Assembly (NCBI GenBank): GCA_965248705.1
Contig: CBDFJY010000002.1
Coordinates: 1,322,980-1,386,979, forward strand
From: Acidimicrobiia bacterium
GTDB lineage: Bacteria > Actinomycetota > Acidimicrobiia > Spongiisociales > ZC4RG35
Direction: 5' to 3'
Length of the DNA: 64,000 nucleotides
Below are positions 4,549 through 20,450 of this stretch, piece by piece. The position numbers and the translations under genes are program-made. The stretch's first letter is position 1; every line of letters begins with the position of its first letter. The notes under the pieces were generated by a model. The model saw nothing but the letters and a program-made list of their open reading frames with translations, was not told where the DNA came from and ran no database searches.

Positions 4549-5625
4549 ATGGAGCCGAAATCACAGGAGAGTTCCGTCGAAACGGTGGAGTGGGATGGCG
4601 AAGTCGTAAAGCTGATTGACCAGACTCGGCTCCCCCACCAACTGGTCATCCTGGAAATCTCGGATGTGCCGACTCTGGTGGCGGCTATCCAGCGGCTGTC
4701 GGTGCGGGGCGCTCCCGCTATCGGGGTAGCCGGCGCCTACGGGGTGGCCTTGGCGGTTCGCCACCACGGCACGCAGGGCCCCGAACTCGATGAGGCGATC
4801 GCCGCGCTCCGCTCGGCCCGCCCCACCGCTGTCAACCTGGCCAAGATGGTGGATCGGACGGCTGCTTTGGTGTCCCAGGGCTTGGAAAGGGTGCTGGACG
4901 AAGCCCACAACATCCGCGATGAGGAGCTGGCCGCCTCCATCTCCATGGGCGAATACGGAGCGGATCTGGCGGACGAGTTGATTGGCGAGGCGGCGGCGCG
5001 AACCATGACCATCTGCAACACCGGCGGGCTGGCCACGGTCGCCCGGGGGACGGCGCTGGCTGTCATCCAGACGCTTCACGAACGCGGACGCCTGGAGATG
5101 GCGCTCCCCGTCGAAACCCGTCCCCTCCTGCAGGGAGGGCGTCTCACCACCTGGGAACTGGCCCGGATGGGGGCGCCGTTCCGGCTGCTGGTGGACGGTG
5201 CCGGGCCGTTTCTCCTGGCCAGGGGAGAGGCCAATCTGGTGCTGGCCGGCGCCGACCGGATAGCCCGTAACGGCGATGTGGCCAACAAAATCGGCACTTT
5301 CAGCCTGGCGCTGGCCGCCCGCCACGCCGGGGTGCCGTTCATAGTGGTGGCTCCCGAGTCGACAGTCGATCTCGACACTCCGTCCGGCGCCGAAATAGAC
5401 ATAGAGGACCGGGGATCGAGGGAGGTGGTTTCCCTGGCGGGAGTGGACGTTGCGCCGCCCACCGCCGAGGCGCTGAACCCGGCCTTCGACATCACCCCCG
5501 CCGAATTCATCACCGCTATCGTTACTGATCGGCGGGTCATCAGGCCTCACCACGGCCAAACTCCCGAGAATGTCCCCTGGGGAGCGCTCAGGCGTTCCCG
5601 TGAGGGGGAGACAGCACCAAAATGA
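4549..5625 (+). CDS. mtnA: methylthioribose-1-phosphate isomerase / eIF-2B alpha-beta-delta family (MtnA-like)
   Basis: ..KLIDQTRLPHQLVILEISDVPTLVAAIQRLSVRGAPAIGVAGAYG.. and ..TICNTGGLAT..VLAGADRIARNGDVANKIGT.. are hallmarks of MtnA and the ribose-1,5-bisphosphate isomerase family. It is divergent from mtaD with a 20-bp gap. Confidence 0.75.
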   Translation: MEPKSQESSVETVEWDGEVVKLIDQTRLPHQLVILEISDVPTLVAAIQRLSVRGAPAIGVAGAYGVALAVRHHGTQGPELDEAIAALRSARPTAVNLAKMVDRTAALVSQGLERVLDEAHNIRDEELAASISMGEYGADLADELIGEAAARTMTICNTGGLATVARGTALAVIQTLHERGRLEMALPVETRPLLQGGRLTTWELARMGAPFRLLVDGAGPFLLARGEANLVLAGADRIARNGDVANKIGTFSLALAARHAGVPFIVVAPESTVDLDTPSGAEIDIEDRGSREVVSLAGVDVAPPTAEALNPAFDITPAEFITAIVTDRRVIRPHHGQTPENVPWGALRRSREGETAPK

Positions 5626-5640
5626 GAAGGAGAAAGCGAC

Positions 5641-6672
5641 ATGAGAAACCGAAGAGTGGTTCTGGGAATCACAGTCATGCTGGCCCTTGCCTTGTTGGCC
5701 TCGGCCTGCGCCGAAGAAGAAGAAGCCGCACCCGACGGCCCGAGTTTGATCTATGTAACCCCCAATCCGATTGGCGTTAACAAGTTCCTGGAACTGGGCC
5801 AAGTCGGCACCCAGCGGGTGGCCGAGGAAATGGGAGGGTCTTGGAAAACCTTTGAGTCGACCAACGACTCCGACCGGCGCGCCAACGTCGAGGCCGCCAT
5901 TGACGAGGCGCCCGACGTGGTGGTGCTCACCACCTTCACACTCCTCGAGTTGGCCGACGAAGTTTCCAAGGCCAATCCCGATCAGCAGTTCATTCTGATC
6001 GACGCCTGTCCCAACGAGCCTGCCGCCAACCTGCACTGCGGGGTTTTCCGGGAGCACGAAGGGGCCTACCTGCTGGGCATCATGGCGGGCCGTCTCAGCC
6101 AGGCCAAGCAGATAGGCTCGGTAGTGGCGCTGGACATTCCGTTCCTGCACCGCTGGTCCGACAGCTTCGCGCTGGGCGCCCAGAGCATCGATCCTTCCAT
6201 TACCGACACGCAAGTGTTCATCGGTGGCGACAATCCCTTCTCCGATCCGGCTCGCGCCAAGGAACAGGCGTTGGCGGTGGCGGCGCGCGGCGCCGATCAC
6301 ATCTTCGCAGTGGGCGCCGGGTCCAACGGCGGCATTTTCGAAGCCGCCCAGCAGGAGGGCTTCTTGAGCTATGGTGTGGATATCAACCAGTGCCCGGACG
6401 CTCCGGGAAGCATCGTTGACAACAACCTGAAGCTGGTGGATGTCCTGGTCGAACAGTTAGCGAAGCAGGTGCTGGACGGAACGGCCGGCTCGGTGGTGGC
6501 CTTCGGTCTGGCCGAGGGCGGCACCGGTGTGGTGGCCCTCTTCTCCGATGACGAACTAGCAGCAAGCGAGTGTGTGATTGCCGACCATCCCGATATCGTG
6601 GCCGAGGTCCGCGCCGCCCGGGACGCCATCGTGGCAGGCGACATCGTAGTCCCCGACCCCCTGTTCGGTTGA
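5641..6672 (+). CDS. BMP-family ABC transporter substrate-binding lipoprotein (nucleoside-binding PnrA-like)
   Basis: Lipoprotein signal peptide MRNRRVVLGITVMLALALLASAC, where LASAC is the lipobox. BMP/PnrA-like body. It is immediately followed by the ATPase and two permeases. Confidence 0.75.
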   Translation: MRNRRVVLGITVMLALALLASACAEEEEAAPDGPSLIYVTPNPIGVNKFLELGQVGTQRVAEEMGGSWKTFESTNDSDRRANVEAAIDEAPDVVVLTTFTLLELADEVSKANPDQQFILIDACPNEPAANLHCGVFREHEGAYLLGIMAGRLSQAKQIGSVVALDIPFLHRWSDSFALGAQSIDPSITDTQVFIGGDNPFSDPARAKEQALAVAARGADHIFAVGAGSNGGIFEAAQQEGFLSYGVDINQCPDAPGSIVDNNLKLVDVLVEQLAKQVLDGTAGSVVAFGLAEGGTGVVALFSDDELAASECVIADHPDIVAEVRAARDAIVAGDIVVPDPLFG

Positions 6673-6679
6673 TGACTTC

Positions 6680-8203
6680 TTGACCTTCGAGCTGGAGCTC
6701 CGCGGAATAACCAAGCGGTTCCCCGGCGTCGTTGCCAACGACGCGGTGGACTTGGCGGTGCGGCCCGGAGATATCCACGCCATTGTCGGCGAGAACGGGG
6801 CAGGCAAGACCACCCTGATGTCGTTGCTCTACGGACTGTTCCCCCCCGACGAGGGAGAGATCCTCATCAGGGGGGAACCGGTCCGTTTCTCATCGGCGTT
6901 GGACGCCATCGGGGCCGGGCTGGGCATGGTCCATCAGTCATTCAAACTGTTCCCGACCCTGAGCGTGGCCGACAATGTGGTGTTCCGCCAGGAACCCACC
7001 CGTGGCGGGCTCATCGACCGAGCAGCCAGCGCCGTCCGGGTCCGGGATCTGGCCGACCGGTACGGCTTGGCGGTGGATCCCGAGGCAGCGGTGGAGGATC
7101 TCCCGGTGGGAGTACTGCAGCGGGTAGAGATACTGAAGGCTCTCTACCGGGACGCGCAGGTCCTCATTCTGGATGAGCCCACCGCGGTGCTCACCCCCCA
7201 GGAACGGGACCAGCTGTTCGAGGTTATCCGGAGACTGCGTGACGCGGGGCGAACGATTCTCTTCATCACCCACAAGCTGGGGGAGGTGATGGCGATCTCC
7301 GACCGAGTGACCGTACTCCGCAACGGTCGGTCGGTGGCCAACCTGGTGACCGCCCAGACCAACCCGACCGAGATAACCTTGCATATGACCGGCCGGGCGG
7401 TCGACTTGCATCGGAGGGCCCCCGAACACGAGCCCGACCGGGTCGTGCTCGAGGTGGAGAGTCTCACCGTGCTGGGCGGCCATGGGCGGCCGGTAGTGGA
7501 TGACGCTAACTTCGAGGTGAGATCGGGGGAGATAGTGGGAATAGCCGGGGTGGCGGGAAACGGCCAGAGCGAGTTGATCGAGGCGCTCTGCGGGCTGCGG
7601 GAGGCGGCCTTTGGCTCGGTGACCCTATCGGGTAAGGACATCACCGGTGTCGACGTGGCCGGACGGCGAGATGCCGGACTGGCATACATACCCGAGGATC
7701 GCTACGGGGTGGGTACCACCCGTCAGGCATCGGTCTCCGAGAACCTCCTGATGGGTCATCACCGGAGAACGAAGGTCCAGCGTAAGGGCTGGTTCGACCG
7801 CCGCGCGGTCACCGAACTCACCCGACGGCTGGTGGAGGTGTTCGGGATCAAGGTGGGTTCGGTATCAGATCCGGTTTCAACGCTCTCGGGCGGGAACCTG
7901 CAGAAGGTGGTGGTGGCTCGGGAGATGGAATACGGTTCGCCGCTCCTCATCGCCGAGCAGCCCACCCGCGGACTCGACATCGGCGCCATCGAGTTCGTTC
8001 ACAGCCAGTTAGTGGATTACCGGGACCAGGGCGGAGCGGTGCTGATGGTGTCGGCCGAATTGTCGGAGATCCTAGCGCTGAGCACCCGCATCCTGGTGAT
8101 GTTCGAGGGGCGCATCGTGGCGAGTCTTGATCCCCGTAGCGTCGCCGAGCCCGAGATCGGCCTTTACATGACCGGAGCGCACCTAGAGGCAGCGGTTGCT
8201 TAA
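6680..8203 (+). CDS. ABC transporter ATP-binding protein with duplicated ATPase domains (nucleoside/sugar type)
   Basis: GENGAGKTTLMS (Walker A) in the first half and a second NBD (GVAGNGQSEL) in the second half. LSGGNLQKV signature motifs are present. Confidence 0.85.
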   Translation: MTFELELRGITKRFPGVVANDAVDLAVRPGDIHAIVGENGAGKTTLMSLLYGLFPPDEGEILIRGEPVRFSSALDAIGAGLGMVHQSFKLFPTLSVADNVVFRQEPTRGGLIDRAASAVRVRDLADRYGLAVDPEAAVEDLPVGVLQRVEILKALYRDAQVLILDEPTAVLTPQERDQLFEVIRRLRDAGRTILFITHKLGEVMAISDRVTVLRNGRSVANLVTAQTNPTEITLHMTGRAVDLHRRAPEHEPDRVVLEVESLTVLGGHGRPVVDDANFEVRSGEIVGIAGVAGNGQSELIEALCGLREAAFGSVTLSGKDITGVDVAGRRDAGLAYIPEDRYGVGTTRQASVSENLLMGHHRRTKVQRKGWFDRRAVTELTRRLVEVFGIKVGSVSDPVSTLSGGNLQKVVVAREMEYGSPLLIAEQPTRGLDIGAIEFVHSQLVDYRDQGGAVLMVSAELSEILALSTRILVMFEGRIVASLDPRSVAEPEIGLYMTGAHLEAAVA

Positions 8204-9290
8204 GCGGTTCCTGGACGAACTCCGGAGTATGAGCCAACGGGCGTTGGTGAGTCCGGTGACCTTCTCGTTGCTCTTTGCCTTTGCTCTGGCCGCCGCCATT
8301 GTGGCTGTCACCGGTGGTGATCCCCTGGCGGCGGGGGAGGAGATGTTCACCGGGGCGGTCACCGGCTCCGGGCTGCGCAACACCCTGGGCCGAGCGATCC
8401 CGATAGTGGGTATGGCCCTGGCGGTCTCTATCGCCTTTCGATCGGGAATCATCAATCTGGGGGGAGAGGGTCAGATGGTGATCGGCGGGCTGGCAGGGAC
8501 GATCGTGGCCATATACGTGCCGGGTCCGGGGATTCTGATCGTCCCCCTGGCGATGCTCACAGGAGCCGTGGTGGGCGCCCTGTGGGCGCTCCTCCCCGCC
8601 TACGGTCAGACCAGGCTTCGTCTTCCCATTCTCATCACCACCCTGCTCCTCAATTACGTGGCCCGCGCCATCACCGGATACCTGGTGCGGTTCCCGCTGG
8701 CCGACGTTTCGGTCACTCTGGCGACCACCCGCCAGGTTCCCGAGTCCGCCCGCATGCCCAAGATGCCGGTCTTCGGAGGAGTCAGCCTGTCGCTGATTCT
8801 TGTCATATTGCTGGTGGTGCTTCTCTGGATGGTGTACACCCGCACCGTGGCTGGCTACGAGACGCAGATGGCAGGCTTCAACATGCGCTCCGCCCGCTAC
8901 GGGGGCATCGATGTGGAGCAGCGCACAGTACAGGTGATGGTGGTGGGCGGGGCGATCGGGGGACTGATCGGGACCCATCTCATCATCGGCGAGGCGATTC
9001 GTTACATCGACGGCGAGTTGGTGCTGAGCGGCTTTGCCTGGACCGGTCTCCTGGTCGCCCTCTTGGCGGTGAACCGGCCCATTCCCATTTTCATTACGGG
9101 GCTCTTCTTCTCGGGTCTTCAGATCGGCGGGCTGGCGATGCAGCGGAACGCCGGCGTGTCGTGGCGCCTATCGCAGGTGTTGCAGGCGGTGGTGATCGTG
9201 GCGGTGGCTTGTCGACTTGCCATCCGAAGGGGTGAGCGGCGCCAGGCCGAGCCAGGGGAAGCCGAAGCGGCGGGGGTGGGGGAGGTCTGA
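8196..9290 (+). CDS. ABC transporter permease
   Basis: Polytopic hydrophobic protein. Its start overlaps the ATPase stop, which is classic operon coupling. Confidence 0.75.
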   Translation: MLKRFLDELRSMSQRALVSPVTFSLLFAFALAAAIVAVTGGDPLAAGEEMFTGAVTGSGLRNTLGRAIPIVGMALAVSIAFRSGIINLGGEGQMVIGGLAGTIVAIYVPGPGILIVPLAMLTGAVVGALWALLPAYGQTRLRLPILITTLLLNYVARAITGYLVRFPLADVSVTLATTRQVPESARMPKMPVFGGVSLSLILVILLVVLLWMVYTRTVAGYETQMAGFNMRSARYGGIDVEQRTVQVMVVGGAIGGLIGTHLIIGEAIRYIDGELVLSGFAWTGLLVALLAVNRPIPIFITGLFFSGLQIGGLAMQRNAGVSWRLSQVLQAVVIVAVACRLAIRRGERRQAEPGEAEAAGVGEV

Positions 9291-10207
9291 TGTTCGAACA
9301 GATCTTCGACACCGCTCTCTTCGACTCGGCCACCCGGGCCATGATCCCCATCCTGCTGGCGGCGCTCGGCGGCATGATCTGCGAGCGTGCGGGGGTCTTC
9401 CAGATCGCCCTGGAGGGAATCATGCTAGCGGGGGCTTTTGCGGCGGTGGCCGGTTCCTATCTGGCCCTGAGCTCCGGCGTGGGGGTGATCTTCGGGATGG
9501 CGGCCGGGATGCTGATTGCCCTCGCTCTTGCATACGGCACGGTTACCCGCCAAGGCGATTCCATCGTGCTGGGGATAGCCTTGAACCTGCTGGCGATGGG
9601 CCTCACCGGCTTCTTACTACCGCAACTCTTCGATGTGCGAGGGGTCTTGCAGCATCCCCGCATCGACGGGCTGGACAGGATCGCCATTCCGGGCCTGTCA
9701 CAGCTCCCCTGGGTCGGGCCGGTGCTCTTCGACAACACCGTCCCCACCTACCTGGCGCTGCTGCTGGTACCGGCCCTGTGGGTGTTCCTGTTCCGCTCTC
9801 CGATTGGTTTGCGTCTCCGGGGGGTGGGTGAGCGGCCCCTGGCTGCGGAGACTCTCGGGGTGAGTCCGACCGTCTACAAATACGGAGCGGTTTTGGCGTC
9901 CGGCGCCTTGGCCGGGATGGCCGGGGCTCAACTCTCATTGGGCAACGTGGTGCAGTTCGCCGAGAACATGTCCAGCGGGCGGGGCTGGGTGGCGGTGGTG
10001 GCGGTGATGTTGGGCCGGGCCCATCCGGTGGGTGTCCTGGCTGCCGCCGCTCTTTTCGCTTTGGCCGAGGCGCTTGGCTTCCGCTTCCAGGGCAACGGCC
10101 TCCCGGTGCAGATAACCGACGCCCTTCCCTTCGTGGTGACCCTGTTGGCTCTGGTGGTCGCTCGCAAGCGATTCGCCCGCCTTCTCGACCTGACCACCGC
10201 CGGTTGA
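9290..10207 (+). CDS. ABC transporter permease
   Basis: Second permease. The start ATG overlaps the previous stop (ctgATGttc). The C-terminus is ..LLALVVARKRFARLLDLTTAG. Confidence 0.75.
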   Translation: MFEQIFDTALFDSATRAMIPILLAALGGMICERAGVFQIALEGIMLAGAFAAVAGSYLALSSGVGVIFGMAAGMLIALALAYGTVTRQGDSIVLGIALNLLAMGLTGFLLPQLFDVRGVLQHPRIDGLDRIAIPGLSQLPWVGPVLFDNTVPTYLALLLVPALWVFLFRSPIGLRLRGVGERPLAAETLGVSPTVYKYGAVLASGALAGMAGAQLSLGNVVQFAENMSSGRGWVAVVAVMLGRAHPVGVLAAAALFALAEALGFRFQGNGLPVQITDALPFVVTLLALVVARKRFARLLDLTTAG

Positions 10208-10249
10208 GTAGGCTGGGTTTGGGTGAGAGGCGGGGCCGGGAGCGGCCGC
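10135..10249. repeat. direct repeat copy A (3' end of permease gene plus about 40 nt downstream)
   Basis: ggtgaccctgttggctctggtggtcgctcgcaagcgattcgcccgccttctcgacctgaccaccgccggttga.. recurs imperfectly at 11204..11318. Confidence 0.7.
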
Positions 10250-10313
10250 GCTGTTCCTGATCACATCCAAGAAGCGATGACCGACCGGAAATGGGAATAC
10301 AAGGAGCAATGTC

Positions 10314-11159
10314 ATGAGCAACAGGGGGCTTTGGGAGCGTTTAGAGCGACGCTTGAATCACAAGATTGAGAAATTCGCGGGAGTAGCGGGAGTTTCAGTG
10401 ATGGATCTGAAGCGTGGAGACGGAGTGTCCATACGTGGCAGCGAGGTGTTTCCCACGGCGTCCACTATCAAGATCCACATTTTGACACAGCTCTTGAGCC
10501 GTGCCGAGAGAGGTGAGATAGACCTTGGTGAGCGCGTCAGGATCACACCCGAGATGCGCGGAACAGGTAGTGGAGTAATCCACTATATGGAAGGTGAGCC
10601 CGAGTTGTCAGTGCTGGATATAGCCATCCTGATGATCATTGTGTCGGACAATACGTCGACGAACATGTGCATAGATTGGGCGGGCATGGAGGCAACCAAT
10701 GCGCTGTTGCGTGACATGGGACTGACCGCGACGAAGTTACGGCGCAAGATGATGGACAGCGAGGCTATACACAGGGGTGACGAGAATGTTTCGACGCCGA
10801 ACGAACTCGTTGCGATGCTGGAGATGCTGTATCGGGGTAAGCCGTCATCCAAAGTGGCGGAGCAGGTCCTGCGGATCATTGGTAAGCCCAAGACTGCACC
10901 GTTGAACCGGGCGATACCGTCCAACTTGGTGGTTGCGAACAAATCGGGCGGCATGGAACGGGTCCGCTGCGATGCTGGAATTGTGTTTCTGGGAAACCGA
11001 CCCTACGCCATAGCGGTGATGACCAAATTCGCATTGGAGGACGTCGTAGGCCGGGAAGCATTCATCATGGATCTGGCACGGGACGTACATCAGACGATGG
11101 TGGCACTGGACAGCACCAACGATTTCGGGTTGGGCGTACTTACGTACACGGGTTACTAG
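10314..11159 (+). CDS. class A beta-lactamase-like serine hydrolase (no signal peptide detected)
   Basis: STIK (SxxK), SDN and KSGG (KTG-like) motifs in canonical order and spacing. The coding region is visibly lower in GC than its flanks. Confidence 0.65.
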   Translation: MSNRGLWERLERRLNHKIEKFAGVAGVSVMDLKRGDGVSIRGSEVFPTASTIKIHILTQLLSRAERGEIDLGERVRITPEMRGTGSGVIHYMEGEPELSVLDIAILMIIVSDNTSTNMCIDWAGMEATNALLRDMGLTATKLRRKMMDSEAIHRGDENVSTPNELVAMLEMLYRGKPSSKVAEQVLRIIGKPKTAPLNRAIPSNLVVANKSGGMERVRCDAGIVFLGNRPYAIAVMTKFALEDVVGREAFIMDLARDVHQTMVALDSTNDFGLGVLTYTGY

Positions 11160-11203
11160 CAACAGTGTTTGCTTGTTGCGACAATGGAGGATTTGCGTAA
11201 CCC

Positions 11204-11318
11204 GGTGACCCTGCTGGCCTTGGTGATCGCTCGCAAGCGTTTCGCCCGCCCCCGGGACCTCACCACCGCCGGATGACTAAGCTGGAATCTGTGAAAGGAA
11301 AGGACCGGAGGCGGCCGT
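11204..11318. repeat. direct repeat copy B (diverged remnant of the permease 3' end)
   Basis: ggtgaccctgctggccttggtgatcgctcgcaagcgtttcgcccgcccccgggacctcaccaccgccggatga.. encodes PVTLLALVIARKRFARPRDLTTAG*. Compare VVTLLALVVARKRFARLLDLTTAG* for the real C-terminus. Confidence 0.7.
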
Positions 11319-11352
11319 AGAATTCCTATACCTGTTCGGGTTAGCGGTCGGG

Positions 11353-11838
11353 TTGCCGCTATTGCTGGTTTTCGCTTTTGGGGGCGAAGTGGGCGCCGAC
11401 ACCGACACTGGTTCGGACGGAGGTTTTTTCTCGCGGGTGTCGATCAGTGCTGTCGCCTTTGGGGCTACCTTCTTTGGACTTTCCGGTCTGTTCACCGTGT
11501 GGGTGGGGCTATCCCCTCTGCCGGGGGTGTTGATCTCCGCGGGGGTGGGAGTTCTGGGGGCAGCCTTTCACAACGCCCTTTTTGGTTGGCTGCGCCGCAC
11601 GGAGGCGTCCAGTGAAGTCACCAACCAGGACCTCGAAGGCGCCACCGGTTTGGTCGTGTTGCCGGTTTCTACCGACAGGCGGGGGCAGATAGTTGTAGAA
11701 GTGGCGGGGCAGCGACTTCGGATTAGCGCCTCCCCCGCCAATCCGGAAGATCGGCTGGCAAAGGGAATCAGGGTGAAAATCGTGGAAATGGATGGCGGCG
11801 TGGCTCTGGTAATAGACTTAGGCACAGAAAGAAAGTAG
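11353..11838 (+). CDS. NfeD-like membrane protein (partner of flotillin)
   Basis: N-terminal hydrophobic segments followed by a C-terminal OB-fold-like region (GQIVVEVAGQRLRI..VKIVEMDGGVALVI). It lies immediately upstream of an SPFH/flotillin gene. Confidence 0.6.
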   Translation: MPLLLVFAFGGEVGADTDTGSDGGFFSRVSISAVAFGATFFGLSGLFTVWVGLSPLPGVLISAGVGVLGAAFHNALFGWLRRTEASSEVTNQDLEGATGLVVLPVSTDRRGQIVVEVAGQRLRISASPANPEDRLAKGIRVKIVEMDGGVALVIDLGTERK

Positions 11839-13142
11839 TGAATATGTTTGGAAATGCAGGAACTCCGTTGTTGCTCGGCGCGGCAGTTGCGTTGGTGATA
11901 TTGATTCTGATCGGAATCGTCAAGTCTTTGGTGGTGATTTGTCCTCCCAACCGGGTGGCGGTGATTTCCGGACGCAAGCGCGCACTGAGCGACGGGCGGA
12001 AGGTGGGCTATCGCCTGCTACAAGGAGGACGGACGCTGCGTGTCCCTCTCATTGAGCGGGTCCAGTGGATGAGTCTGAACACCATTCCGTTGGAAGTGGC
12101 GGTGACCAACGCCTATTCGCGGGGGACGATTCCTCTGAATGTGGCGGGGATCGCCAATGTGAAAGTGTCAAGCCGTGAAGGATTGCTGGAAAACGCCGCT
12201 GAGCGGTTCCTGGGACGGTCCAGTGCTCAGATCGGACAGATTGCGAAGGAGACGCTGGAGGCCAACCTGCGAGGCGTGTTGGCGACCTTGTCGCCCGAAG
12301 AGGTGAATGAAGACCGACTCAAGTTTTCGCACCAGTTGATTGATGAGGCCGACGACGACATCAAGACCCTGGGTCTGGAACTTGATGTCCTCAAAATCCA
12401 GAACGTCACCGACGATGTCCAGTATTTGACCTCGGTGGGGCGCCTTCTCACCGCCGAGGTGATTCGTAATGCCCGTGTGGCGGAAGCAGAACGCAAAGCA
12501 GAGGCGGAAAAGGCCGAGGCTGCCGGTCGGCAAGTTGGACAGGTCGCCGGCCTTGAGGCGGACAGGGCGATCGTGGTGGAGAACAATGGTCTGCGGGTCC
12601 GTACCGCCGAACTGGAGGCCGTCTCGAACGCACGAGAGGAGGAAGCGCTGGTGGCGGGAGAGGTCGCCAAAGTCGTGGCCAGTCAGGAGTTGGAAGGCCA
12701 GCGCATCGAGCTGGAGAAACGACGCGTGGAGGCGGCGGTGGTGGTTCCGGCCCGAGCCGAATTGGAAGCTCAACAACTGCATGCCCGGGCCGAAGCAGCG
12801 TCGATCATCGAGGACGGAAGAGCCCAGGTTGAGGTGTTCAAACTCCTCACCGATCAGTATCAGGCAGCCGGCAAGGACGGGCACCATGTGCTGGTGCTCA
12901 ACATGCTTCCCGAACTGATCGACAAGATCGTCGCTACCGTGCAAGGAGTCAAGATCGACCGGGTGGCGGTGGTGGACTCCAACAGCGACCGGGGCAGCAG
13001 CGGTGGAGGTATACCCGGCCTGGTTTCCCAACTGCCCGCCGCTCTGGTGGCCCTGACGGAACAGATAGATGCCGCCACCGGAGTGGACATCCTTGGCTCG
13101 CTACGCCGCCATGTCGACGAACCGACGGAGGACAACGGGTAG
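11838..13142 (+). CDS. flotillin / SPFH (band 7) domain protein
   Basis: N-terminal TM, an SPFH domain, then a long Ala/Glu-rich coiled coil (AEAERKAEAEKAEAAGRQ..). Typical of YqiK/FloA-like flotillins. Confidence 0.8.
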   Translation: MNMFGNAGTPLLLGAAVALVILILIGIVKSLVVICPPNRVAVISGRKRALSDGRKVGYRLLQGGRTLRVPLIERVQWMSLNTIPLEVAVTNAYSRGTIPLNVAGIANVKVSSREGLLENAAERFLGRSSAQIGQIAKETLEANLRGVLATLSPEEVNEDRLKFSHQLIDEADDDIKTLGLELDVLKIQNVTDDVQYLTSVGRLLTAEVIRNARVAEAERKAEAEKAEAAGRQVGQVAGLEADRAIVVENNGLRVRTAELEAVSNAREEEALVAGEVAKVVASQELEGQRIELEKRRVEAAVVVPARAELEAQQLHARAEAASIIEDGRAQVEVFKLLTDQYQAAGKDGHHVLVLNMLPELIDKIVATVQGVKIDRVAVVDSNSDRGSSGGGIPGLVSQLPAALVALTEQIDAATGVDILGSLRRHVDEPTEDNG

Positions 13143-13149
13143 GCCTAGC

Positions 13150-13212
13150 CACAAGTCGGCTTTTGCCGGCTTGCTCGTATGGGTGGAGGGCTACCAAGAA
13201 CCCGATGAACAA
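13150..13212 (-). pseudogene. remnant copy of the 3' end of membrane-protein gene 15341..15700
   Basis: Minus-strand translation FIGFLVALHPYEQ matches the C-terminus FLGFLVALHQYEES of the intact gene. The nucleotide repeat gtatgggtggagggctaccaagaacccgatgaa matches gtattggtggagggctaccaggaacccgaggaa at 15371..15403. Confidence 0.6.
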
Positions 13213-13307
13213 TCCCCGCCGACCAGGGCCGGGCAGCCCAAACTGTCGCAGTGCGCCGCCAACCTTGGTGGAACAGCCGGAGGCAACGGCTGTAGGTTGG
13301 GTAACGC

Positions 13308-14309
13308 TTGGAGGTCCCTATGGAAAGCGCTCTGCAGACCGAGCTCGAACTGGAGATTGATCATCCGAAGCAGGGTCGCGTAAAGACACCTGTTTACCTC
13401 ATCCAAGCTGGGATGACTGATAAAATTAGCCCTATCAGATCGCACCAAATCGAAGTTTCGCCTATTCCCGCGGTAAACGTCGCCTCGGTGCCGCAACGCA
13501 GTCCGCTCCGCTATCCAGGCGGCAAGACATGGCTGGTCCCTCATATCCGTGCTTGGCTCAGCAGCTTCTCCGAGAGGCCCAGGTTGCTGGTCGAACCCTT
13601 CGCCGGCGGGGGGATTGTTTCACTGACCGCCGTTATGGAAAATTTGGTTGAACGTTGTCTTATGGTTGAGCTGGATCGCGACGTGGCTGCCTTCTGGCAC
13701 GCAGCCCTGCGTAAAGGGGAGGAACTCGCTGAAAAGGTGTCATGCTTCACGCCCACGAGAGAAGCGGTGCACTTGCTGGCGAGCCGCGAGACACACGACA
13801 TCGTGGAACACGGTTTTCGCACCCTCGTGTTGAATCGGACCCGCCGGGGTGGCATTCTGGCTCCGGGCGCCTCGTTCAGCCGAGTGGGTGAAAACGGCAA
13901 AGGGCTTGCTTCTCGCTGGTATCCCGAAACGATCGTGAATCGCTTGCAGGAAATAACGAAACACGCCGACCGCATCAGCTTCTGTGAGACGGATGGCATG
14001 AAGATGCTGGAAGCTTTCTCGGGCGAACTTGGTGGTGGCGCAGCTGTTTTCGTGGATCCGCCTTACACCGCCGGGGGCAAACGGGCCGGCAAGCGATTGT
14101 ACGCGCACAGCGAAATAGACCACCCACTGCTCTTTGAGATGCTCGCCGAGAGTGGCGCCGATTTTCTTATGACATACGATCTCTCATACGAAGTCGCCGC
14201 CTTGGTGCAAAAGCACGGCTTCCATGCTGTCCAGGTGACCATGAAGAACACGCACCACGCCCGGATTCCTGAATTGGTGATCACCCCTCGACCTGTGTTT
14301 GGTCCATGA
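13308..14309 (+). CDS. DNA methyltransferase, Dam-like D12 class (N6-adenine type motifs)
   Basis: LRYPGGK, EPFAGGG (FxGxG SAM motif I) and FVDPPY (DPPY motif IV). The true start may be the internal ATG near 13413. Lower GC than the host. Confidence 0.8.
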   Translation: MEVPMESALQTELELEIDHPKQGRVKTPVYLIQAGMTDKISPIRSHQIEVSPIPAVNVASVPQRSPLRYPGGKTWLVPHIRAWLSSFSERPRLLVEPFAGGGIVSLTAVMENLVERCLMVELDRDVAAFWHAALRKGEELAEKVSCFTPTREAVHLLASRETHDIVEHGFRTLVLNRTRRGGILAPGASFSRVGENGKGLASRWYPETIVNRLQEITKHADRISFCETDGMKMLEAFSGELGGGAAVFVDPPYTAGGKRAGKRLYAHSEIDHPLLFEMLAESGADFLMTYDLSYEVAALVQKHGFHAVQVTMKNTHHARIPELVITPRPVFGP

Positions 14310-15184
14310 GCACCCGTTACGGGATCGCGGAATGGTATGGCCGCCTATTTTCAGAACTCTCTCCCGAAACCCGGCATACCCTGGCAAGGAAGGCGTTGCG
14401 AGAAGATCCAGAGGCTCCGCCCTGTCCGTTTCAGAAGAACAAACCTCCCTGCCGCAAGCGTGGCGGAGTGTGTTCCCTGCGCCGTTACCAAAGAGGTGAG
14501 AGTGATCGCATCGGCCTTCCCAAGGGCGATCCGGTCGTAGTGTGCCCTGCTCGATTTGAGGAAGGACAATTATTGGTCGAATGGCTCGCTGAGATTGTCG
14601 GTTTCTCATCGAGCGAGGCGAGGCTGGCCCGCGAAGTGCCTTTCATGCAGGGCACCAGCACCGGTAAACCGGCTGGGAAGATAGATTTGGTAGTGGCCAA
14701 GGCCTCCAACGGCGACCTCAAATGGTATGGCTTGGAGATCCAGGCTGTTTATTTCTCAGGCAGAGGAATGAACTCCGAGTATTTGGGTCTTCGAGATGAC
14801 GACTGTAAAGACCCGCCGTTTCCGGGAGCGGTTCGCCGGCCGGATTGGCGATCCTCAAGTGCAAAGCGCCTCATGCCACAGTTGCAGATCAAGGTACCAA
14901 CCCTCCGTCGGTGGGGATCGAAGCTAGCTGTAGCGGTGGATCGGCCTTTTTTCGATTCGATGGGAGGGCCGAGTTCTGCTCCAAGCAGTGATCTCAATGA
15001 TGGTGATATCGTGTGGATGGTCCCGAGGCTCCTACCCAACGACACGGGGGGCAACGCGTTGTCCCGTGGCCACTGGGAAGTTCTTACCTTGGAGGAATCC
15101 AGCAGGAGACTTCTTGCCGCGGAAACCATCCCGCGTCGCGCCTTCGAACAAACACTAAGAGAGAAGCTGGAGCCCATCGGCTAG
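14306..15184 (+). CDS. putative type II restriction endonuclease, NotI-family-like
   Basis: Its ATG overlaps the MTase TGA (ATGA). A Cys cluster PPCPFQKNKPPCRKRGGVCSL, then VVCPARFEE and YGLEIQAVYFSG, resemble the NotI motifs TGTCPFL..SCVK..RGVCVV, LVCPNRALD and YGVLEIQTMDFHG. The comparison is from memory. Confidence 0.5.
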   Translation: MSTRYGIAEWYGRLFSELSPETRHTLARKALREDPEAPPCPFQKNKPPCRKRGGVCSLRRYQRGESDRIGLPKGDPVVVCPARFEEGQLLVEWLAEIVGFSSSEARLAREVPFMQGTSTGKPAGKIDLVVAKASNGDLKWYGLEIQAVYFSGRGMNSEYLGLRDDDCKDPPFPGAVRRPDWRSSSAKRLMPQLQIKVPTLRRWGSKLAVAVDRPFFDSMGGPSSAPSSDLNDGDIVWMVPRLLPNDTGGNALSRGHWEVLTLEESSRRLLAAETIPRRAFEQTLREKLEPIG

Positions 15185-15340
15185 CTAGAGCCTTATGGCC
15201 TTTAGTGATCTGATTGCATATCGTGCAAAGAGCATGGCCGGTTCGTTTTTACAAAATACCTTATTGGTAAGGGAAAACCGCCAAGGGCGTGACGCAGCAA
15301 AGTTATGACCGAATATGGCCTCCGGGTCATGCGCTCGGGT

Positions 15341-15700
15341 TTAGAGGTCGGCTTTTTCGCGGGATTCTTCGTATTGGTGGAGGGCTACCAGGAACCCGAG
15401 GAAGAGCACGGCCGAGACCACGGTGAAGGTGATTGGGATGATCCGCACCTCGAAGGCGTTGAGTCCCTCGATGTTGGCCGGGCGGGGACCTCGGGGAGCG
15501 TAGAGGACGAAAAGCAGGCTGCCGATGGTCATCCAGGCCGAAATCCCGGCCCCGGTCACCAAGAAAGCCAGCTTCTTTCCCAGGTTGGTGTAGTTCAGTA
15601 GGTAGACGGTGCCGTAGAAAACCAGGATCGCCGTCACCAAGAGGATGATTCCGGTGACGAACAGATTGGCCGAAAGCAGGGATCGAAACAGTTCACGCAT
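15341..15700 (-). CDS. small integral membrane protein (3 predicted TM)
   Basis: Hydrophobic 119-aa ORF, last gene of the respiratory operon. Its 3' terminus is duplicated at 13150..13212. Confidence 0.5.
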   Translation of the reverse strand: MRELFRSLLSANLFVTGIILLVTAILVFYGTVYLLNYTNLGKKLAFLVTGAGISAWMTIGSLLFVLYAPRGPRPANIEGLNAFEVRIIPITFTVVSAVLFLGFLVALHQYEESREKADL

Positions 15701-15703
15701 AGC

Positions 15704-17410
15704 TCAGTTCCCCTTGCCGTTGAGGTTGCCTGCCCACAGGTAGTCCACCAGCAGATCCAGGTCGTCGGAGGAAAGCACCGCCCCGAAAGCGGGCATCTGC
15801 CCGTTCCCGAACCCGCTCACCCCGTAGGGCAGGTCGGCCACCGCCCCCACCAGCAGGAAGGAGCGAAGGTCTTCCTTGGCGATGAACTGCACTCGCGGTC
15901 TGCCCTTCCACACTGCCGGCCCGAACCCTCCCGAGCCTGGCTCGGAGGCATAGGGTGTCCCCGCTGACCAGCCGGAAGTGTGACAGCGCGCACAATAGCC
16001 GGTGAACACTCCAACCGCCCGGGTGGCCTGGTCCGTATCGCCGTCAAAAGCCGCGTCGGCCACTCCTTCCAGATCTATCTCCCACTTCCGCTCCATCTGG
16101 GCGTCCCGCAACTCTTCGAGGCCGGCGCGGGCGGGAACGAGCAGCCGCTCGGCGTTTTCGGTTCGCACCGACAGGTTTATCGCCGCGCTCGCCATACCGG
16201 AGACCGCGGTGGCGGCTGCCCGGTCGTCGGTGATCCCCCCGCCCGAGGAAGCCCGCTCAGGATCCAGGTTGACCACCATCAGGGTGTTGGGGCGGAGCGC
16301 TGTCCGGGCTATGGCCAGTTCGGCGGTGAGCACCCTTTCCAACCGGTCGGAGAGGCCGTCTCCATCCGAGTCTTCCTCGTCCTCGGCGTTAGCCGCCGTC
16401 TCGATAGAGGCAAGCCGCAACTGGAGAATCGGGGCCTGGGGCGCCATCGCCCGCAGGGTGGAGCGGGCAAGGTCGGCCACGGCGGCGTCGGGTCGCCCGT
16501 CCGTTGCGGGGTTTTGCGGATCGAAGGTCAAAGCTTCGATGTCGGTGAAGTCGAACAGGGCGGCGGCTGAGGCGGTTAGCTGGGAGATCGTCACCTCGGA
16601 GATATCCGACAGGTTGTCCCCGTCGCGGTCGATTCCCTGGTCCGAGAGTTCGAGGGTCCGGCGGGCGAGGACCACCAGTTCGGCCATGGTCTCGGCATGC
16701 CGTGGCGCCTGTTCTATATCGGCGATCAACTGCTGTTGCTCGATGATGGCCCTTTCCAGCGACTGGTCGGCGTTCTCCAGAAGGCTCAGCTGGTTCACGA
16801 CCATGCCGTCGGTTTTGCGAAGGGTCTCCTGTTGGGAGATTTGGATGCTCTCCAGGTAGTTGACGATGTCAAAGATCTGCTGTTCGTTCATGGGCCCCCC
16901 TCCCACGGTGCCCCAGGGGGGCATGGGGGAGTTGCCCCGCCCGTATGTAATCCAATAGGTGATGATGTCGCGGTCGTAACGCAGGAAGACGTCATCGAGA
17001 GCCGGCGCCGACCAGGACACGTTCACCCCGGTCCGCTTCTCCACATAGCTGGCCACTCCCCCCACTCCGCTAGGGCCGTGACAGCTCCAGCAGTCGGCAT
17101 CGTCAGGTCCCACCAACTCGGCGCCCCGTTCCACCGACTCCTCGTGGAACTGATCGACGAAGCTGAGTTGACGATCGGTCTCACTCAGGTAGTAAACCGC
17201 CAGTCCGACCGCCAGGAAGGCGGAGAGCAGAACTGCGCCCTGTTGGATGCGCTCCAGCCGGCGGGTCTCCAAAGCGTCGTCGGTGACCCCCGGCGCCTGG
17301 TTGGGAGGTATTCCTTCCCGGCGACGGGATCGAAGCGCGGCCACTCCCAAAAAAGAGAGCCAGATCACCGCTCCCACGACGACCAGGGTTATTACCAGCG
17401 AAGAGTCCAT
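15704..17410 (-). CDS. membrane-anchored diheme cytochrome c with a large acidic insertion
   Basis: Two CxxCH motifs (CWSCH near the N-terminus, CARCH near the C-terminus). Each has a downstream Met ligand context (MPPWG, MPAFG). Two N-terminal TM helices. A roughly 300-aa Asp/Glu-rich insert carries DRDGDNLSD and DSDGDGLSD motifs. Confidence 0.8.
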   Translation of the reverse strand: MDSSLVITLVVVGAVIWLSFLGVAALRSRRREGIPPNQAPGVTDDALETRRLERIQQGAVLLSAFLAVGLAVYYLSETDRQLSFVDQFHEESVERGAELVGPDDADCWSCHGPSGVGGVASYVEKRTGVNVSWSAPALDDVFLRYDRDIITYWITYGRGNSPMPPWGTVGGGPMNEQQIFDIVNYLESIQISQQETLRKTDGMVVNQLSLLENADQSLERAIIEQQQLIADIEQAPRHAETMAELVVLARRTLELSDQGIDRDGDNLSDISEVTISQLTASAAALFDFTDIEALTFDPQNPATDGRPDAAVADLARSTLRAMAPQAPILQLRLASIETAANAEDEEDSDGDGLSDRLERVLTAELAIARTALRPNTLMVVNLDPERASSGGGITDDRAAATAVSGMASAAINLSVRTENAERLLVPARAGLEELRDAQMERKWEIDLEGVADAAFDGDTDQATRAVGVFTGYCARCHTSGWSAGTPYASEPGSGGFGPAVWKGRPRVQFIAKEDLRSFLLVGAVADLPYGVSGFGNGQMPAFGAVLSSDDLDLLVDYLWAGNLNGKGN

Positions 17411-17420
17411 GACATTCCTC

Positions 17421-18287
17421 CTATATGCAGGAGGGGCCTTGCGGATAGGATACGGATTGGGCGATGGCCCGGGGGGTTTCCACGATCATTCCGGTTCTGA
17501 TGACCAACCGTCCTTCCTCGGTGACGTTGACCGCGAATCGGTCGAGATTCCGGGGGGCGGGACCGGCGAAATACTCTCCGATCGAGTTGTACTTGGATCC
17601 GTGGCAGGGGCATTCGAAACCTTGGGAGTCGTTGCACCAGGGCACCCGACATCCCAGGTGGACGCAGCGCTGATAGAGGGCCATCAGCCCACCGGCGACC
17701 ACGTCTCTGTCCGCGAATTGCTGGCTCATCTCGGTGGGCGCCGGGACTACATAGGCGCGGGCGTCGGGGATGAAAGCCGGGGTGACCAGGCCGGCGCTGT
17801 CGGTCATCGCCGGTACCAGGTCGGCGGCGAGTCCGGCGTCCACATCGCTCCCGAAGCCTCCGGTTATTTTGGGCCACAAAAAGGCCAGGATCTCTATCCC
17901 CATGATGCCAAACCACGCGACCGACATGGCGGCCAGGGACCGGTTGAAGAACTGCCGGCGGGTGACCCCCACCTCCTCGGGGGAGGCTTCCACGATCACC
18001 TGAGATTCGGTGATGGGCGCCAGCGCCTCCATCACCTCGACCGGGGCCTCTTCTTCCGCAACGGCCGGGGCTTCGGCCTCCGACGGCTCCGTGTCCACAG
18101 AGGTTTCCAGCACCAAATCCATGGAGGGAGCGGAACGGTCGGCCTTCCGGGCGCGGCGTTCTACCCGCTTGGGCCAGAGAGAGGCCGAGTCGGGATCCGC
18201 GCGGCGGAAGGCGATGGTGAAGGCGCCAATCGCGGCGGCGATGGCCACCGCCGCCACCCCGATGATGATCAGCTCGACGCTGTCCAT
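17421..18287 (-). CDS. Rieske [2Fe-2S] iron-sulfur protein
   Basis: CVHLGC..CPCHGS Rieske boxes. An internal twin-arginine-like TRRQFF sits ahead of the hydrophobic anchor. There is an extra N-terminal TM and an acidic extension. Confidence 0.85.
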
Positions 18288-18309
18288 CAGACCATCAGAC
18301 TATTCGACA

Positions 18310-19182
18310 TCAGTGGCCCCCAAAGTCGACCCAGTCTTTCAGGTCATCGAAAAATATCCCGTCCACCCACGGGTAGGCAAAGTTGAATCCCGGCCCCCGG
18401 AACAGCACTCCCAGGATGGTGAGGGTGGCTGCTCCGGCCAGGAAGATGGTGAACATCATGATGGCCAGTTTGCGGTCGGAGGGGCGGGTGGAGGGGTTGC
18501 GGTCTATATAGGGAATCATCATGAATCCCACCAGCCCGATCACGGTCGGCACCGTGACTCCGGCGATTTGGGGGTCAAAATAGGAGAGCATCTCCTGGAG
18601 ACCCAGGAAATACCAGGGTGCCTTGGAAGGGTTGGGGGTGGCATTGAAGTTGGCCGATTCCAGGAGGGGCGCCTGGAGGATGACCGAGAGAACCAGGAGA
18701 AAGGCGGTCATCGCCAAAAGGGCGGTGAACTCGGTGATCATCAGATGCGGCCAGGTGTTTACCTTGTCGGTGGGGTCGGCCTTTACCTGTTGGATGGCTC
18801 GGGCCTTGACCACGGTGAGCAGTCGCTGATGGCGGACTCCCTCGGGCAGGTCGGTGGGTGGGACCGAGGGACGAACCGAGACCGAAGCCGCCAATCGTCC
18901 GTTCCCGGCGCCGTTTTCCCCACTCGCCGGGGCGGCTGTGACGGCCGGGGTGATTACCGGAGCGGGCTCGGGCGGCGGGGGAGCGGGGGGAGTCTCGGAG
19001 ACGGATGGCGGGGGGGCGGTGGGAACCATGCGGGGGGCGGGCACCACGACCTTCTCTGCGGCTATTTCGGTGACCGGGGCCTCTCCGCGCATCTCGGCCA
19101 GAACCTGTTCAACCGGCAGGCCCAATGCCTTGGCCTTGGCTTCGGCGGACCGTCTCAACAGTTCTTCAGGGATTTGTGGCAC
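18310..19182 (-). CDS. cytochrome b C-terminal-domain protein (b6f subunit IV / PetD-like) with a Pro-rich N-terminal extension
   Basis: WPHLMITEF.., ..APWYFLGLQEMLSYF.. (the PEWY-type motif) and ..IMMFTIF... The first 130 aa are Pro/Ala-rich low complexity. Confidence 0.7.
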   Translation of the reverse strand: MPQIPEELLRRSAEAKAKALGLPVEQVLAEMRGEAPVTEIAAEKVVVPAPRMVPTAPPPSVSETPPAPPPPEPAPVITPAVTAAPASGENGAGNGRLAASVSVRPSVPPTDLPEGVRHQRLLTVVKARAIQQVKADPTDKVNTWPHLMITEFTALLAMTAFLLVLSVILQAPLLESANFNATPNPSKAPWYFLGLQEMLSYFDPQIAGVTVPTVIGLVGFMMIPYIDRNPSTRPSDRKLAIMMFTIFLAGAATLTILGVLFRGPGFNFAYPWVDGIFFDDLKDWVDFGGH

Positions 19183-19201
19183 TAGTGCTCACCTCGCATG
19201 T

Positions 19202-19990
19202 TCAGAGAGGCCCGGAGATGCCGCCGTCTTTGCGGACTCTCCAAAAGTGGACCGCCAGGAATATCACGATGATGAACGGCAGAAAGAGAACATGAAGCAC
19301 ATACCATCGCAAAAGTGTCCCCGCCGTTACCTCCACCCCGCCCAATAGGGCGAATTTCACCTGCGCGCCTATCACAGGAACGAACCCGGCCATGTTGGTG
19401 CCCACCGTCACCGCCCACAGAGCCAACTGGTCCCAGGGAAGCAGATAGCCGGTGAAGGAGAGGAGCAAGGTCAGGAGCAGCAGGATGACTCCCACCACCC
19501 AGTTGAACTCGCGGGGAGGCTTGTAAGCCCCGTGGTAGAAAACCCTGGACATGTGGAGAAACACGGTTAGCACCATCAGATGGGCGCCCCAGCGGTGCAT
19601 ATTCCTCATCAGGGAGCCAAAGGCGATGTCGGTGGAGAGCGCCTGCACATCGATGTAGGCCCGTTCCGCGGTGGGGGCGTAGTAGAACATCAGGAAAATG
19701 CCGGTCACGGTCAGGAGAATGAAGAGGAAAAAGCTCATCCCTCCCAGACAAAGCGTGTAGGAGAGCTTGACGCCGTGTCGCTTCACCTTCACCGGATGGA
19801 GGTGATAGAGCACGTTGTTCATGATCACATAGGAGCGGTTGCGGGGAGTGTCGGTGTAGCCCTTTTTGAAGGGAGAGCCGGGTCGCAGCATCGAATCCAT
19901 GAACTGGCCCGACCAGACTCGTCCCATCAACCCCGACACTGAGGTGCGGGCTTTGGTCAGAAGGCCTTGTCTGCCGTTTTGGTTGCTCAC
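19202..19990 (-). CDS. cytochrome b6-type (N-terminal heme-binding half of a split cytochrome b)
   Basis: ..YHLHPVKV.., ..[17 protein letters not shown].. and ..LPWDQL..WA..V.. show the characteristic b-heme His pairs on helices B and D. Confidence 0.85.
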
Positions 19991-19999
19991 CCTTACTCC

Positions 20000-20449
20000 T
20001 TACCAACGCATTCCATAGGTATAGCCGTGTTTGAAGTCCCTTTGGCCGGTGTCCACCTCCCAGGGCGCCGCGTTGAGGCCCATCTCCTCGGCCTGGGCGG
20101 CCAGGGACCCCTCGAACTTGCCCAGGGAGATGACCCCGGTGGGGCAGCGATCGATGCACAGGGCGCAGCGGGTGCACTCGTTTTCGTCGACCACGAAGAA
20201 ACCGTAATTGGTGACGTCTTCCCGTGGGTCATCGACGTTGACCGCTTCGTCGATGGCGTCCATAGAGAGATAGAAGATGCACTTCCACGGGCAGATGTCC
20301 ACGCAGCCCTCGCAAATGATGCACTCGGACTGATCGATGTGGAGAAACTGCTTGGGGCGAATCTTGCCCAGGTAGAAGTCGTTTTCCACCAGGGCGAGCT
20401 GGTAGTCGTCTCGAAAGGGCGGGGTCTCATCTACAACTCCGCGGGGCAT
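20000..20449 (-). CDS. 2[4Fe-4S] ferredoxin-like protein
   Basis: Two CxxCxxCxxxCP motifs: CIICEGCVDICP and CTRCALCIDRCP. Confidence 0.8.
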   Translation of the reverse strand: MPRGVVDETPPFRDDYQLALVENDFYLGKIRPKQFLHIDQSECIICEGCVDICPWKCIFYLSMDAIDEAVNVDDPREDVTNYGFFVVDENECTRCALCIDRCPTGVISLGKFEGSLAAQAEEMGLNAAPWEVDTGQRDFKHGYTYGMRW

Positions 20450-20450
20450 C

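Follow-up and report, generated by a model that had tools for sequence, protein, structure and literature searches.

Relics of gene 3′ ends at a recombination hotspot between two conserved operons of sponge-type Acidimicrobiia

We analysed a 64 kb stretch of an Acidimicrobiia genome (contig CBDFJY010000002.1; the whole stretch is hereafter the window), in which partial copies of two gene ends lie among accessory genes between an ABC transporter operon, closed by the permease gene perm2, and the cytochrome bc1 (qcr) operon, closed by mem119, a gene for a conserved 119-aa membrane protein. An earlier note on this DNA had taken a β-lactamase-like gene (bla) and a type II restriction–modification (R-M) unit for integrase-less cassettes, each inserted exactly at a gene 3′ end, with the displaced terminus retained as an att-like footprint. 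Comparison of the window with related loci, designated here by L numbers, points to another origin: the two relics would be the truncated ends of one NfeD–flotillin segment that was pasted into the locus by illegitimate recombination, a reading that we regard as evenly balanced between right and wrong. In a broader frame, we propose that 10.2–15.3 kb of the window is a variable region between the two convergent conserved operons in sponge-type Acidimicrobiia, in which modules (bla-like, NfeD–flotillin, NotI-type R-M and substrate-binding-protein (SBP) genes) would have been gained, lost and re-ordered by recombinase-independent recombination, either illegitimate or one-sided homologous, among diverged relatives.

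Self-BLAST within the window recovered both direct repeats that the earlier note had described, each 84% identical, and their distal copies proved to be genuine relics of the perm2 and mem119 3′ ends. The first pair (10135–10216 and 11204–11285; 82 nt, E = 4e-18) reaches, in a gapped alignment, ~40 nt beyond the stop codon, to 10248 and 11317. One copy (A, 10135–10207) is the functional 3′ end of perm2 (9290..10207, + strand). The other belongs to a relic (B, 11204..11325, + strand) between bla and NfeD, which consists of the diverged last 72 nt of perm2, the stop codon and ~40–110 nt from further downstream, which reach into the NfeD start region, with the perm2 reading frame and stop codon retained at 11204–11285. 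The second pair (13155–13209 and 15347–15403; 57 nt with one 2-nt gap, E = 2e-9) reached a score attained by none of 300 shuffles and extends, against some orthologues, to ~13151–13226. Here copy T (15347–15403) is the functional 3′ end of mem119 (15341..15700, − strand), and relic T′ (13151..13226, − strand), which starts 8 nt past the flotillin stop codon, is a diverged copy of the last ~57–76 nt of mem119 that carries a 2-nt deletion and a degenerate stop codon (TCA>CCA on the + strand).

For comparison, 166 loci were gathered by flotillin, mem119, restriction endonuclease (REase) and NfeD searches, all of them from Acidimicrobiia and many from sponge metagenomes; a further contig, P0241 (918 kb), has an NfeD that is 95% identical. 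Relic B sits between bla and NfeD in the window and in L159, L001, L140 and L142. The L159 copy is 90% identical to that of the window, and both have an internal deletion of ~85 nt; the relic is longer in L001 and L140 (~170–210 nt, extending to the bla stop codon), indicating that the perm2 relic of the window was formerly longer as well. In L112 and L143–145 the coding part of the relic has decayed to ~50% identity and its stop-proximal tail has been kept. This tail, with the pattern CCGGnTGACTAnTCTGGGC ... TTGGGAGCGGCCGTAC, the final part of which is the NfeD start, precedes every NfeD at the locus, after bla in the window, L001, L112 and L143–145 and after R-M in L158 and L161. Because the tail is present whichever gene lies 5′, relic and tail belong to the upstream edge of the NfeD–flotillin pair. 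Moreover, L165 and L166 carry an NfeD–flotillin block, 81% nt identical to window 11236–13139, at an unrelated locus, where it has an aminotransferase gene on one side and a VWA gene on the other and where neither an ABC transporter nor perm2 is nearby; directly 5′ of this NfeD lies a ~107–135 nt relic of the perm2 3′ end (E = 4e-14). These two loci would strengthen, not conclusively, the assignment of B to the NfeD–flotillin edge. Relic B differs from the functional perm2 end in only 9 codons, and the synonymous bias among them is equally produced by drift of the functional copy itself, so that it does not tell a foreign from an in-situ origin. Nor do the relics discriminate among the lineages from which they might have come, since they are 72–84% identical, over less than 90 nt, to the perm2 and mem119 of all of them. 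Relic B also lies in frame with bla, in L001 as in the window, and an ATG at 11184 opens a 33-codon open reading frame through it (11184–11285; MEDLRNPVTLLALVIARKRFARPRDLTTAG, followed by a stop codon), probably fortuitously.

Read from perm2 towards mem119, ~30 related contigs display at least 15 different gene orders, which strongly supports the local hotspot that had been suggested from the window. In L153–156, bla is followed by SBP, with neither NfeD–flotillin nor relics; an N6/N4 methyltransferase (MTase) gene stands between these two in L152 and an SLH-protein gene in L149–151, R-M precedes them in L148, and L162 carries R-M, bla, two genes and two SBP genes. The order bla, NfeD–flotillin, SBP is found in L001, L140 and L142; to it L112 adds 1.3 kb ahead of SBP, L143 and L146 a 378-aa gene after SBP, L144 a phosphatase gene ahead of SBP and L145 a three-gene MTase cassette ahead of bla. 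L159 has bla, NfeD–flotillin, R-M, an 87-aa gene and SBP, the window bla, NfeD–flotillin and R-M, and L158 a truncated R-M, NfeD–flotillin, bla and a pseudo-SBP gene. L161 has R-M and NfeD–flotillin with a single mem119 end, that is, perm2>(R-M)>NfeD>flotillin><mem119. The permease genes are deleted in L164, which retains R-M and SBP, and insertion sequence (IS) elements adjoin mem119 in L136–139 and L141. The NfeD–flotillin block also occurs in other contexts (L002–L055 as well as L165 and L166). Among distant relatives, the juxtaposition of the ABC transporter and qcr operons is missing in 54 of 55 GTDB loci with flotillin and in 79 of 80 metagenome loci with mem119, so that the hotspot is confined to one clade in which the two operons are convergent neighbours. 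Identity along these loci is mosaic (97% for perm2 versus 90% for the ABC ATPase gene in L112), indicating recombination in the flanks.

Two further rearrangements were seen at these loci. In L164 (6880–7030; contig ERZ25072384) the ABC ATPase gene and both permease genes are missing and R-M directly follows the stop codon of the Bmp gene; judging from the sequence, this is likely a 3.5-kb deletion at a 7-nt microhomology, as the heptamer CGGTTGA closes Bmp as well as perm2. This contig, of just 1.03 Mb, is flagged as circular and may represent a reduced genome. In L001 (11285–11353) and L140 (8282–8350, both in window orientation), a 23-nt unit, GAGGACGAGGGGTAGGCCTACTT, made of the last 15 nt of flotillin, the stop codon and 8 nt downstream, is tandemly triplicated, its last copy forming a GAGGTAGGCCTACCTC palindrome; this is a further gene-terminus duplication at the same hotspot.

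The comparison also bears on what had been regarded as cargo. bla adjoins perm2 in nearly all relatives, including those without NfeD–flotillin, and is therefore not a recently inserted cassette. For the R-M unit, the locus to compare is L159, the closest relative, which is 95.9% nt identical to the window over 4303–15231. L159 has the same relic T′ (81 of 81 nt identical), and in it the 87-aa gene and SBP separate R-M from mem119. Collinearity between the two stops at 15231/15232, 47 nt past the REase stop codon, and to the right of this point, on the bc1/cbb3 oxidase side (15331–23538), they are only 86–87% identical. The SBP gene is absent from the whole window. The adjacency of R-M and mem119 in the window is thus secondary, a deletion or recombination joint at 15231/15232, and T′ is not the scar of an R-M landing at mem119, as the earlier note had held. 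Nor does the window R-M lie exactly at the end of mem119: 156 nt separate the two stop codons, of which ~28 nt (15232..15259) form the junction region and 15260..15340 (− strand) are the native spacer downstream of mem119, 84% identical to that common to L136–L142. Placement exactly at a gene end, with a displaced terminus beyond, does hold for the same R-M in L148, L162 and L158. The sharp step in identity also means that at least 11 kb, variable region included, were recently common to two otherwise diverged lineages.

Composition is likewise at odds with two islands in a host backbone. GC content is 54% at 10258–11203 and 57% at 13227–15231, against ~65% in the ABC operon to the left and ~62% in the bc1 operon to the right, so the low GC of the bla and R-M units stands. 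The intervening NfeD–flotillin pair, however, is similarly atypical: GC at third codon positions is 0.66–0.70 for NfeD–flotillin, 0.61–0.68 for bla and R-M and 0.77–0.82 in the flanking operons, so that the entire 10.2–15.3 kb interval, not merely two islands, departs from its surroundings.

To account for these observations, we suggest that a segment of ~2.1–2.3 kb, comprising the perm2 3′ end, spacer, NfeD, flotillin and the mem119 3′ end, was cut from an order of the L161 type (perm2>NfeD>flotillin><mem119) and joined in between bla and SBP of an L153-type genome in one event. The functional perm2 and mem119 would never have been interrupted, and the relics would be decaying passengers. R-M would then have been added between the mem119 relic and SBP, giving the L159 state, and a still later joint at 15231/15232 would have removed SBP and placed R-M beside mem119 in the window. 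This scenario is suggested by both relics abutting NfeD–flotillin, by their equal divergence (84%), by the island-like composition of NfeD–flotillin, by the L161 order and the relic-free bla–SBP order of L153–156, and by the relic-bearing block of L165 and L166. From this evidence we infer the direction of events, that is, a block pasted in as opposed to neighbours inserted around it, as well as the end-joining mechanism. The L164 deletion between two CGGTTGA heptamers provides an illegitimate microhomology joint in this group, and a component of non-homologous end joining, a LigD primase–polymerase domain fused to an AP-endonuclease-2/xylose-isomerase-like TIM barrel, is encoded in the window (56283–58169, − strand). 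The window junctions themselves are too decayed for microhomology to be read.

Several observations weigh against a pasted block. First, a 62-nt stretch that follows the functional perm2 stop codon (10205..10266, + strand) has homology to the junction between perm2 and NfeD in other genomes, and this homology takes in the first ~9 codons of NfeD (compared with the L144 junction, a score reached by none of 500 shuffles); such a relic on the functional perm2 side is present only in the window and L159. bla would therefore formally lie inside a ~145–230 bp duplication spanning the perm2/NfeD junction, which fits an insertion with long target duplication, not a simple block paste. Second, L161, the only genome with the order flotillin><mem119, has a 230-nt spacer there and not 8 nt. 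Third, T′ is not detectable in L001 or L140 (p = 0.82 and 0.52 for a mem119 relic after flotillin), and L143–145 (p = 0.17–0.47) and L166 (p = 0.10) likewise gave no significant relic, with traces of 8–14 nt past the flotillin stop codon in L143, L145 and L166; outside the window/L159 lineage, these alignments only weakly support T′ as a part of the NfeD–flotillin block. Fourth, terminus relics have arisen beside R-M at perm2 in L148, L162 and L158, so terminus-duplicating insertion is real at this locus. Last, the lineage tree is mosaic and unrooted and does not polarise gain versus loss, and L165 and L166 could have received relic B with NfeD–flotillin from a window-type genome, in which case they would show movement of the block with its relic and not the origin of the relic.

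The behaviour of the R-M unit elsewhere is informative here. In the window, this unit (13227..15231, + strand) consists of an upstream region, a D12 N6-adenine MTase gene (13320–14309, PF02086), a NotI-family REase gene (14306–15184, PF12183) and the stub of a third gene. It corresponds to a discrete three-gene cassette, M, R and the 87-aa gene on the opposite strand, the last of which is seen in L159, L148 and L162 and survives in the window as a 47-nt stub. The upstream region carries a 9-bp palindrome motif, AACTGTCGCAG (AACTGTC[A/G]CAG; window 13241–13251), and the left end of the cassette lies ~25 nt further upstream. Copies elsewhere are 70–79% identical in protein and directly follow the perm2 stop codon in L148, L158, L161 and L162 and the Bmp stop codon in L164, while in the window and L159 the cassette follows the mem119 relic. 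Neither terminal inverted nor terminal direct repeats were found on four copies of the cassette (p = 0.37–0.65). In L148 the cassette stands between the perm2 end and a relic of that end, 26–30 nt long; in L162 the relic measures 50 nt, and L153–156 represent the corresponding empty sites. In L158 (1425–1877, window orientation) the REase gene breaks off after ~136 codons and continues, in frame, into a 46-nt copy of the perm2 terminus. This copy is 93% identical to the real end at 296–341, and behind it comes a second R-M upstream region, now decayed; the three differences of the perm2-end copy look allelic (two are synonymous and one affects a residue polymorphic among orthologues), and the arrangement has the look of a cassette acquired in nested or tandem fashion. 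In the same locus the bla spacer begins at the flotillin stop codon. The cassette swap between L145 and L144 left no relic. NotI sites (GCGGCCGC) numbered 7 against 7.1 expected, a count that is uninformative on avoidance, and the specificity of the REase is probably not that of NotI, its partner being an N6-adenine MTase.

Three recombinase-independent readings, each of a known kind, compete for these data: the pasted block, insertion with long target duplication and homology-facilitated illegitimate recombination (HFIR). Under long target duplication, which we consider less likely but worth serious attention, two insertions would have entered a perm2>NfeD>flotillin><mem119 backbone without a recombinase, bla duplicating ~150–230 bp at perm2/NfeD and SBP and/or R-M duplicating ~57–76 bp at the mem119 end, through staggered breaks or template switching followed by fill-in; genomes without NfeD–flotillin would have lost the pair later. 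This reading predicts just such a relic of perm2/NfeD junction sequence as the window and L159 carry on the functional perm2 side, and the L161 gene order fits its backbone. It also has in its favour R-M units flanked by perm2-end duplications for which empty sites are available (L148 versus L153–156, with a 26-nt overlap, and L162, with 50 nt). Published cases are recognised by R and M genes within the insert, an insert of <20 kb free of transposase, integrase and phage genes, a direct repeat of >30 bp, and an empty site that differs by R-M alone. By the first three of these the window R-M formally qualifies: the M and R genes lie between the mem119-end copies, the insert spans ~2.1 kb (13227–15346) with only M, R and the small-gene stub, and the repeat is 57–76 nt long and 84% identical. 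As to the fourth, L159 carries extra genes and L161 is distant and has the 230-nt spacer, so neither differs from the window by R-M alone; for L148 and L162 compared with L153–156 at the perm2 end, all four features are essentially present. Set against this reading is that the insert between T′ and mem119 in L159 also holds SBP, which adjoins mem119 in all lineages, and that no flotillin relic, expected if the duplication spanned the junction, was found beside the functional mem119 end (p = 0.62–0.97). It further needs a clean secondary loss of relic, NfeD–flotillin and relic in the clade of L148–156 and L162; the perm2 relic travels with NfeD–flotillin to an unrelated locus, and bla is near-universal.

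Terminus displacement by HFIR, also a serious rival, seems to us less probable still as the source of the window relics. DNA of a relative would have paired through a conserved flanking gene, perm2 or mem119, and its other end would have been joined illegitimately just upstream of the resident stop codon, so that the incoming gene end replaced the resident end, which was left beyond the cargo. L158 gives the picture of a young case, its perm2-end copy with allelic-looking differences standing behind the truncated REase gene; the identity mosaic of the window and L159 (96% versus 86%, with a sharp break at 15231/15232) and the mosaic perm2 identities among lineages are also in keeping with such exchange. 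Nevertheless, a donor of the bla–SBP type would have brought in its own spacer behind perm2 and not a relic of the NfeD 5′ end; two independent events would be required; and for neither the B nor the T′ event were any donor and recipient similar enough for a recombination tract to be traced. HFIR is, moreover, known to yield mostly deletions and not duplications. The process itself is known, and it has been proposed for displaced 3′ ends in type VI secretion system (T6SS)/Rhs arrays (PMC5361080).

A further reading, to which we give only a slim chance, is that illegitimate breaks and joins in this lineage are not random: they would concentrate at the stop codon, within the final few tens of nucleotides of a gene, amounting to a recombinase-free, terminus-displacing exchange of cassettes. 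This is suggested by the R-M joints at four perm2 stop codons and one Bmp stop codon, by the bla spacer that starts at the flotillin stop codon of L158 and by the relics of 26–210 nt. Breaks inflicted by R-M and repaired by LigD-type end joining or by template switching at terminators could possibly drive it. If real, such exchange would shuffle defence and accessory modules between strains with the flanking gene always regenerated.

That a tyrosine or other recombinase, acting in trans, integrated cassettes without an integrase of their own site-specifically into att-like sequences at gene 3′ ends is the least probable explanation by far. The geometry does recall attL and attR of elements entering gene 3′ ends, and IS110-family recombinase genes are present in the window (26343–28724) and beside mem119 in L136–L141. 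The units themselves lack a recombinase, as the earlier note had observed: there is none in 10135–15403 or within ~10 kb, the nearest being these IS110-family transposase genes ~11 kb off, which nothing ties to the relic junctions. tRNA genes, considered as insertion targets, are absent from the window. The shared core that this explanation calls for, and whose absence the earlier note had named as refuting it, did not emerge: on neither strand do all four repeat copies have a 6-mer in common, local alignments between the two pairs scored at chance (p = 0.10–0.99), and mismatches are spread evenly through each pair, leaving no identical crossover block beyond 13–15 nt. Relic length differs by event (26–30 nt in L148, 46 in L158, 50 in L162, 57–76 for T′ and 82 to ~210 for B), and the R-M junction varies by genome, falling at the perm2 stop, the Bmp stop or within the mem119 relic with relics of 0, 26, 46, 50 or 57–76 nt. 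With a cassette without terminal repeats, a swap in L145 without a relic and, in L159, a T′ that does not adjoin the unit it supposedly served, nothing points to the tyrosine recombinase in trans that had been invoked. No duplications without cargo were observed in related strains. The intact IS110-family transposase gene (26343–27560, − strand) encodes 405 aa with PF01548 and PF02371 and adjoins a frameshifted second copy (27475–28724, − strand). Directly downstream of the intact gene lies a 113-nt element (26174–26286), of which an 82%-identical inverted solo copy stands 16 kb off (42115–42228); this element may represent an IS end or else a non-coding (bridge) RNA region of the IS1111 type. 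Genes of the IS110 family lie directly beside mem119 in L136, L138 and L141.

The gene content of the locus was as the earlier note had described it. The left operon, which encodes a Bmp-family ABC transporter, includes an ABC ATPase gene (6680–8203) upstream of perm1 (8196–9290) and ends with perm2 (PF02653), whose relatives are 91–99% aa identical. bla (10314..11159, + strand; PF13354; GC 55%) encodes a class-A β-lactamase-like serine hydrolase with STIK, SDN and KSG motifs and no signal peptide. NfeD (11353–11838, + strand), the true start of which is probably further upstream, is followed by the SPFH/flotillin gene (11838–13142, + strand). To the right of mem119, and like it on the − strand, the bc1 operon has its genes for cytochrome c, the Rieske protein and cytochrome b. 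mem119 itself has no Pfam match and bears varying public names (‘sugar transferase’, ‘YadS’, ‘Fe2+/Pb2+ permease’); across Acidimicrobiia it is invariably the final gene after the bc1 cytochrome c gene (65–97% identity) and may encode an unrecognised subunit of the bc1 complex.

Elsewhere in the window, the cbb3-oxidase region contains an internal repeat (22797–22933 and 23752–23885; 74% identical, ~950 nt apart), which recurs in all relatives (at ~17.5 and 18.3 kb in L143–L156) and may reflect domain duplication in a di-haem cytochrome c subunit. An S-adenosylmethionine (SAM) riboswitch (RF00162, 71.9 bits; 54846–54937, − strand) lies directly 5′ of an α/β-hydrolase gene (53677–54852), which is probably of the homoserine O-acetyltransferase type. 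A tandem array at 58696–63551 is made up of about five paralogous units of ~900 bp, 76–83% identical, at least two of which encode luciferase-like monooxygenases (PF00296).

Among known systems, the closest class is R-M insertion with long target duplication, a recombinase-free mode described by Nobusato et al. 2000 and by Furuta, Abe & Kobayashi 2010 (PMC2853133), in which repeats of tens to hundreds of base pairs flank the unit and occur as a single copy at empty sites, in many phyla including an actinobacterium (PMC2853133). The likeness is a ~2 kb R and M unit without mobility genes between direct repeats, directly in L148 and L162 and formally in the window. The window differs in that its repeats enclose more than R-M, as the SBP inside them in L159 illustrates, that its left pair encloses a non-R-M gene, bla, and that its repeats are old (84% identical, as opposed to near-identical in the published cases), with relics that move with a neighbouring block. 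A second parallel is offered by the ‘C-terminal’ or ‘effector displacement’ arrays of Rhs and T6SS loci, for which HFIR has been proposed (Kirchberger et al. 2017, PMC5361080; Jackson et al. 2009, cited therein), in which a conserved upstream anchor gene acquires new cargo behind it and the old 3′ end or the following gene is kept distally as an orphan, with no integrase. In the present case, however, the regenerated terminus is the same sequence and not a new toxin domain, the cargo consists of unrelated housekeeping-like or defence genes, and the anchor genes encode a permease and a membrane protein of the respiratory chain.

Integrative elements and phages at tRNA or gene 3′ ends resemble the locus in having an intact gene end beside the cargo and a partial copy at its far border, but the window units are 1–2 kb long and have no integrase, identical core or fixed junction. 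Integron cassettes and pdif (XerCD) modules share with it small integrase-less units of one or two genes clustered at one locus; here, by contrast, no attC-like or dif-like inverted repeat was found at the unit ends, no IntI and no array behind an attI site. These loci add new members, from an uncultured lineage, to types of rearrangement already known and reveal no new mechanism. They form a natural series, in uncultured sponge-associated Acidimicrobiia, showing how accessory and defence modules between two conserved operons are reshuffled in the absence of dedicated mobility genes, and they add actinobacterial, metagenome-derived examples to the still unexplained R-M mobility by long target duplication. 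They also show that partial gene copies which resemble att sites can be carried along as passengers when a block is transplanted, which calls for caution in island and prophage callers that use partial duplications as evidence of att sites.

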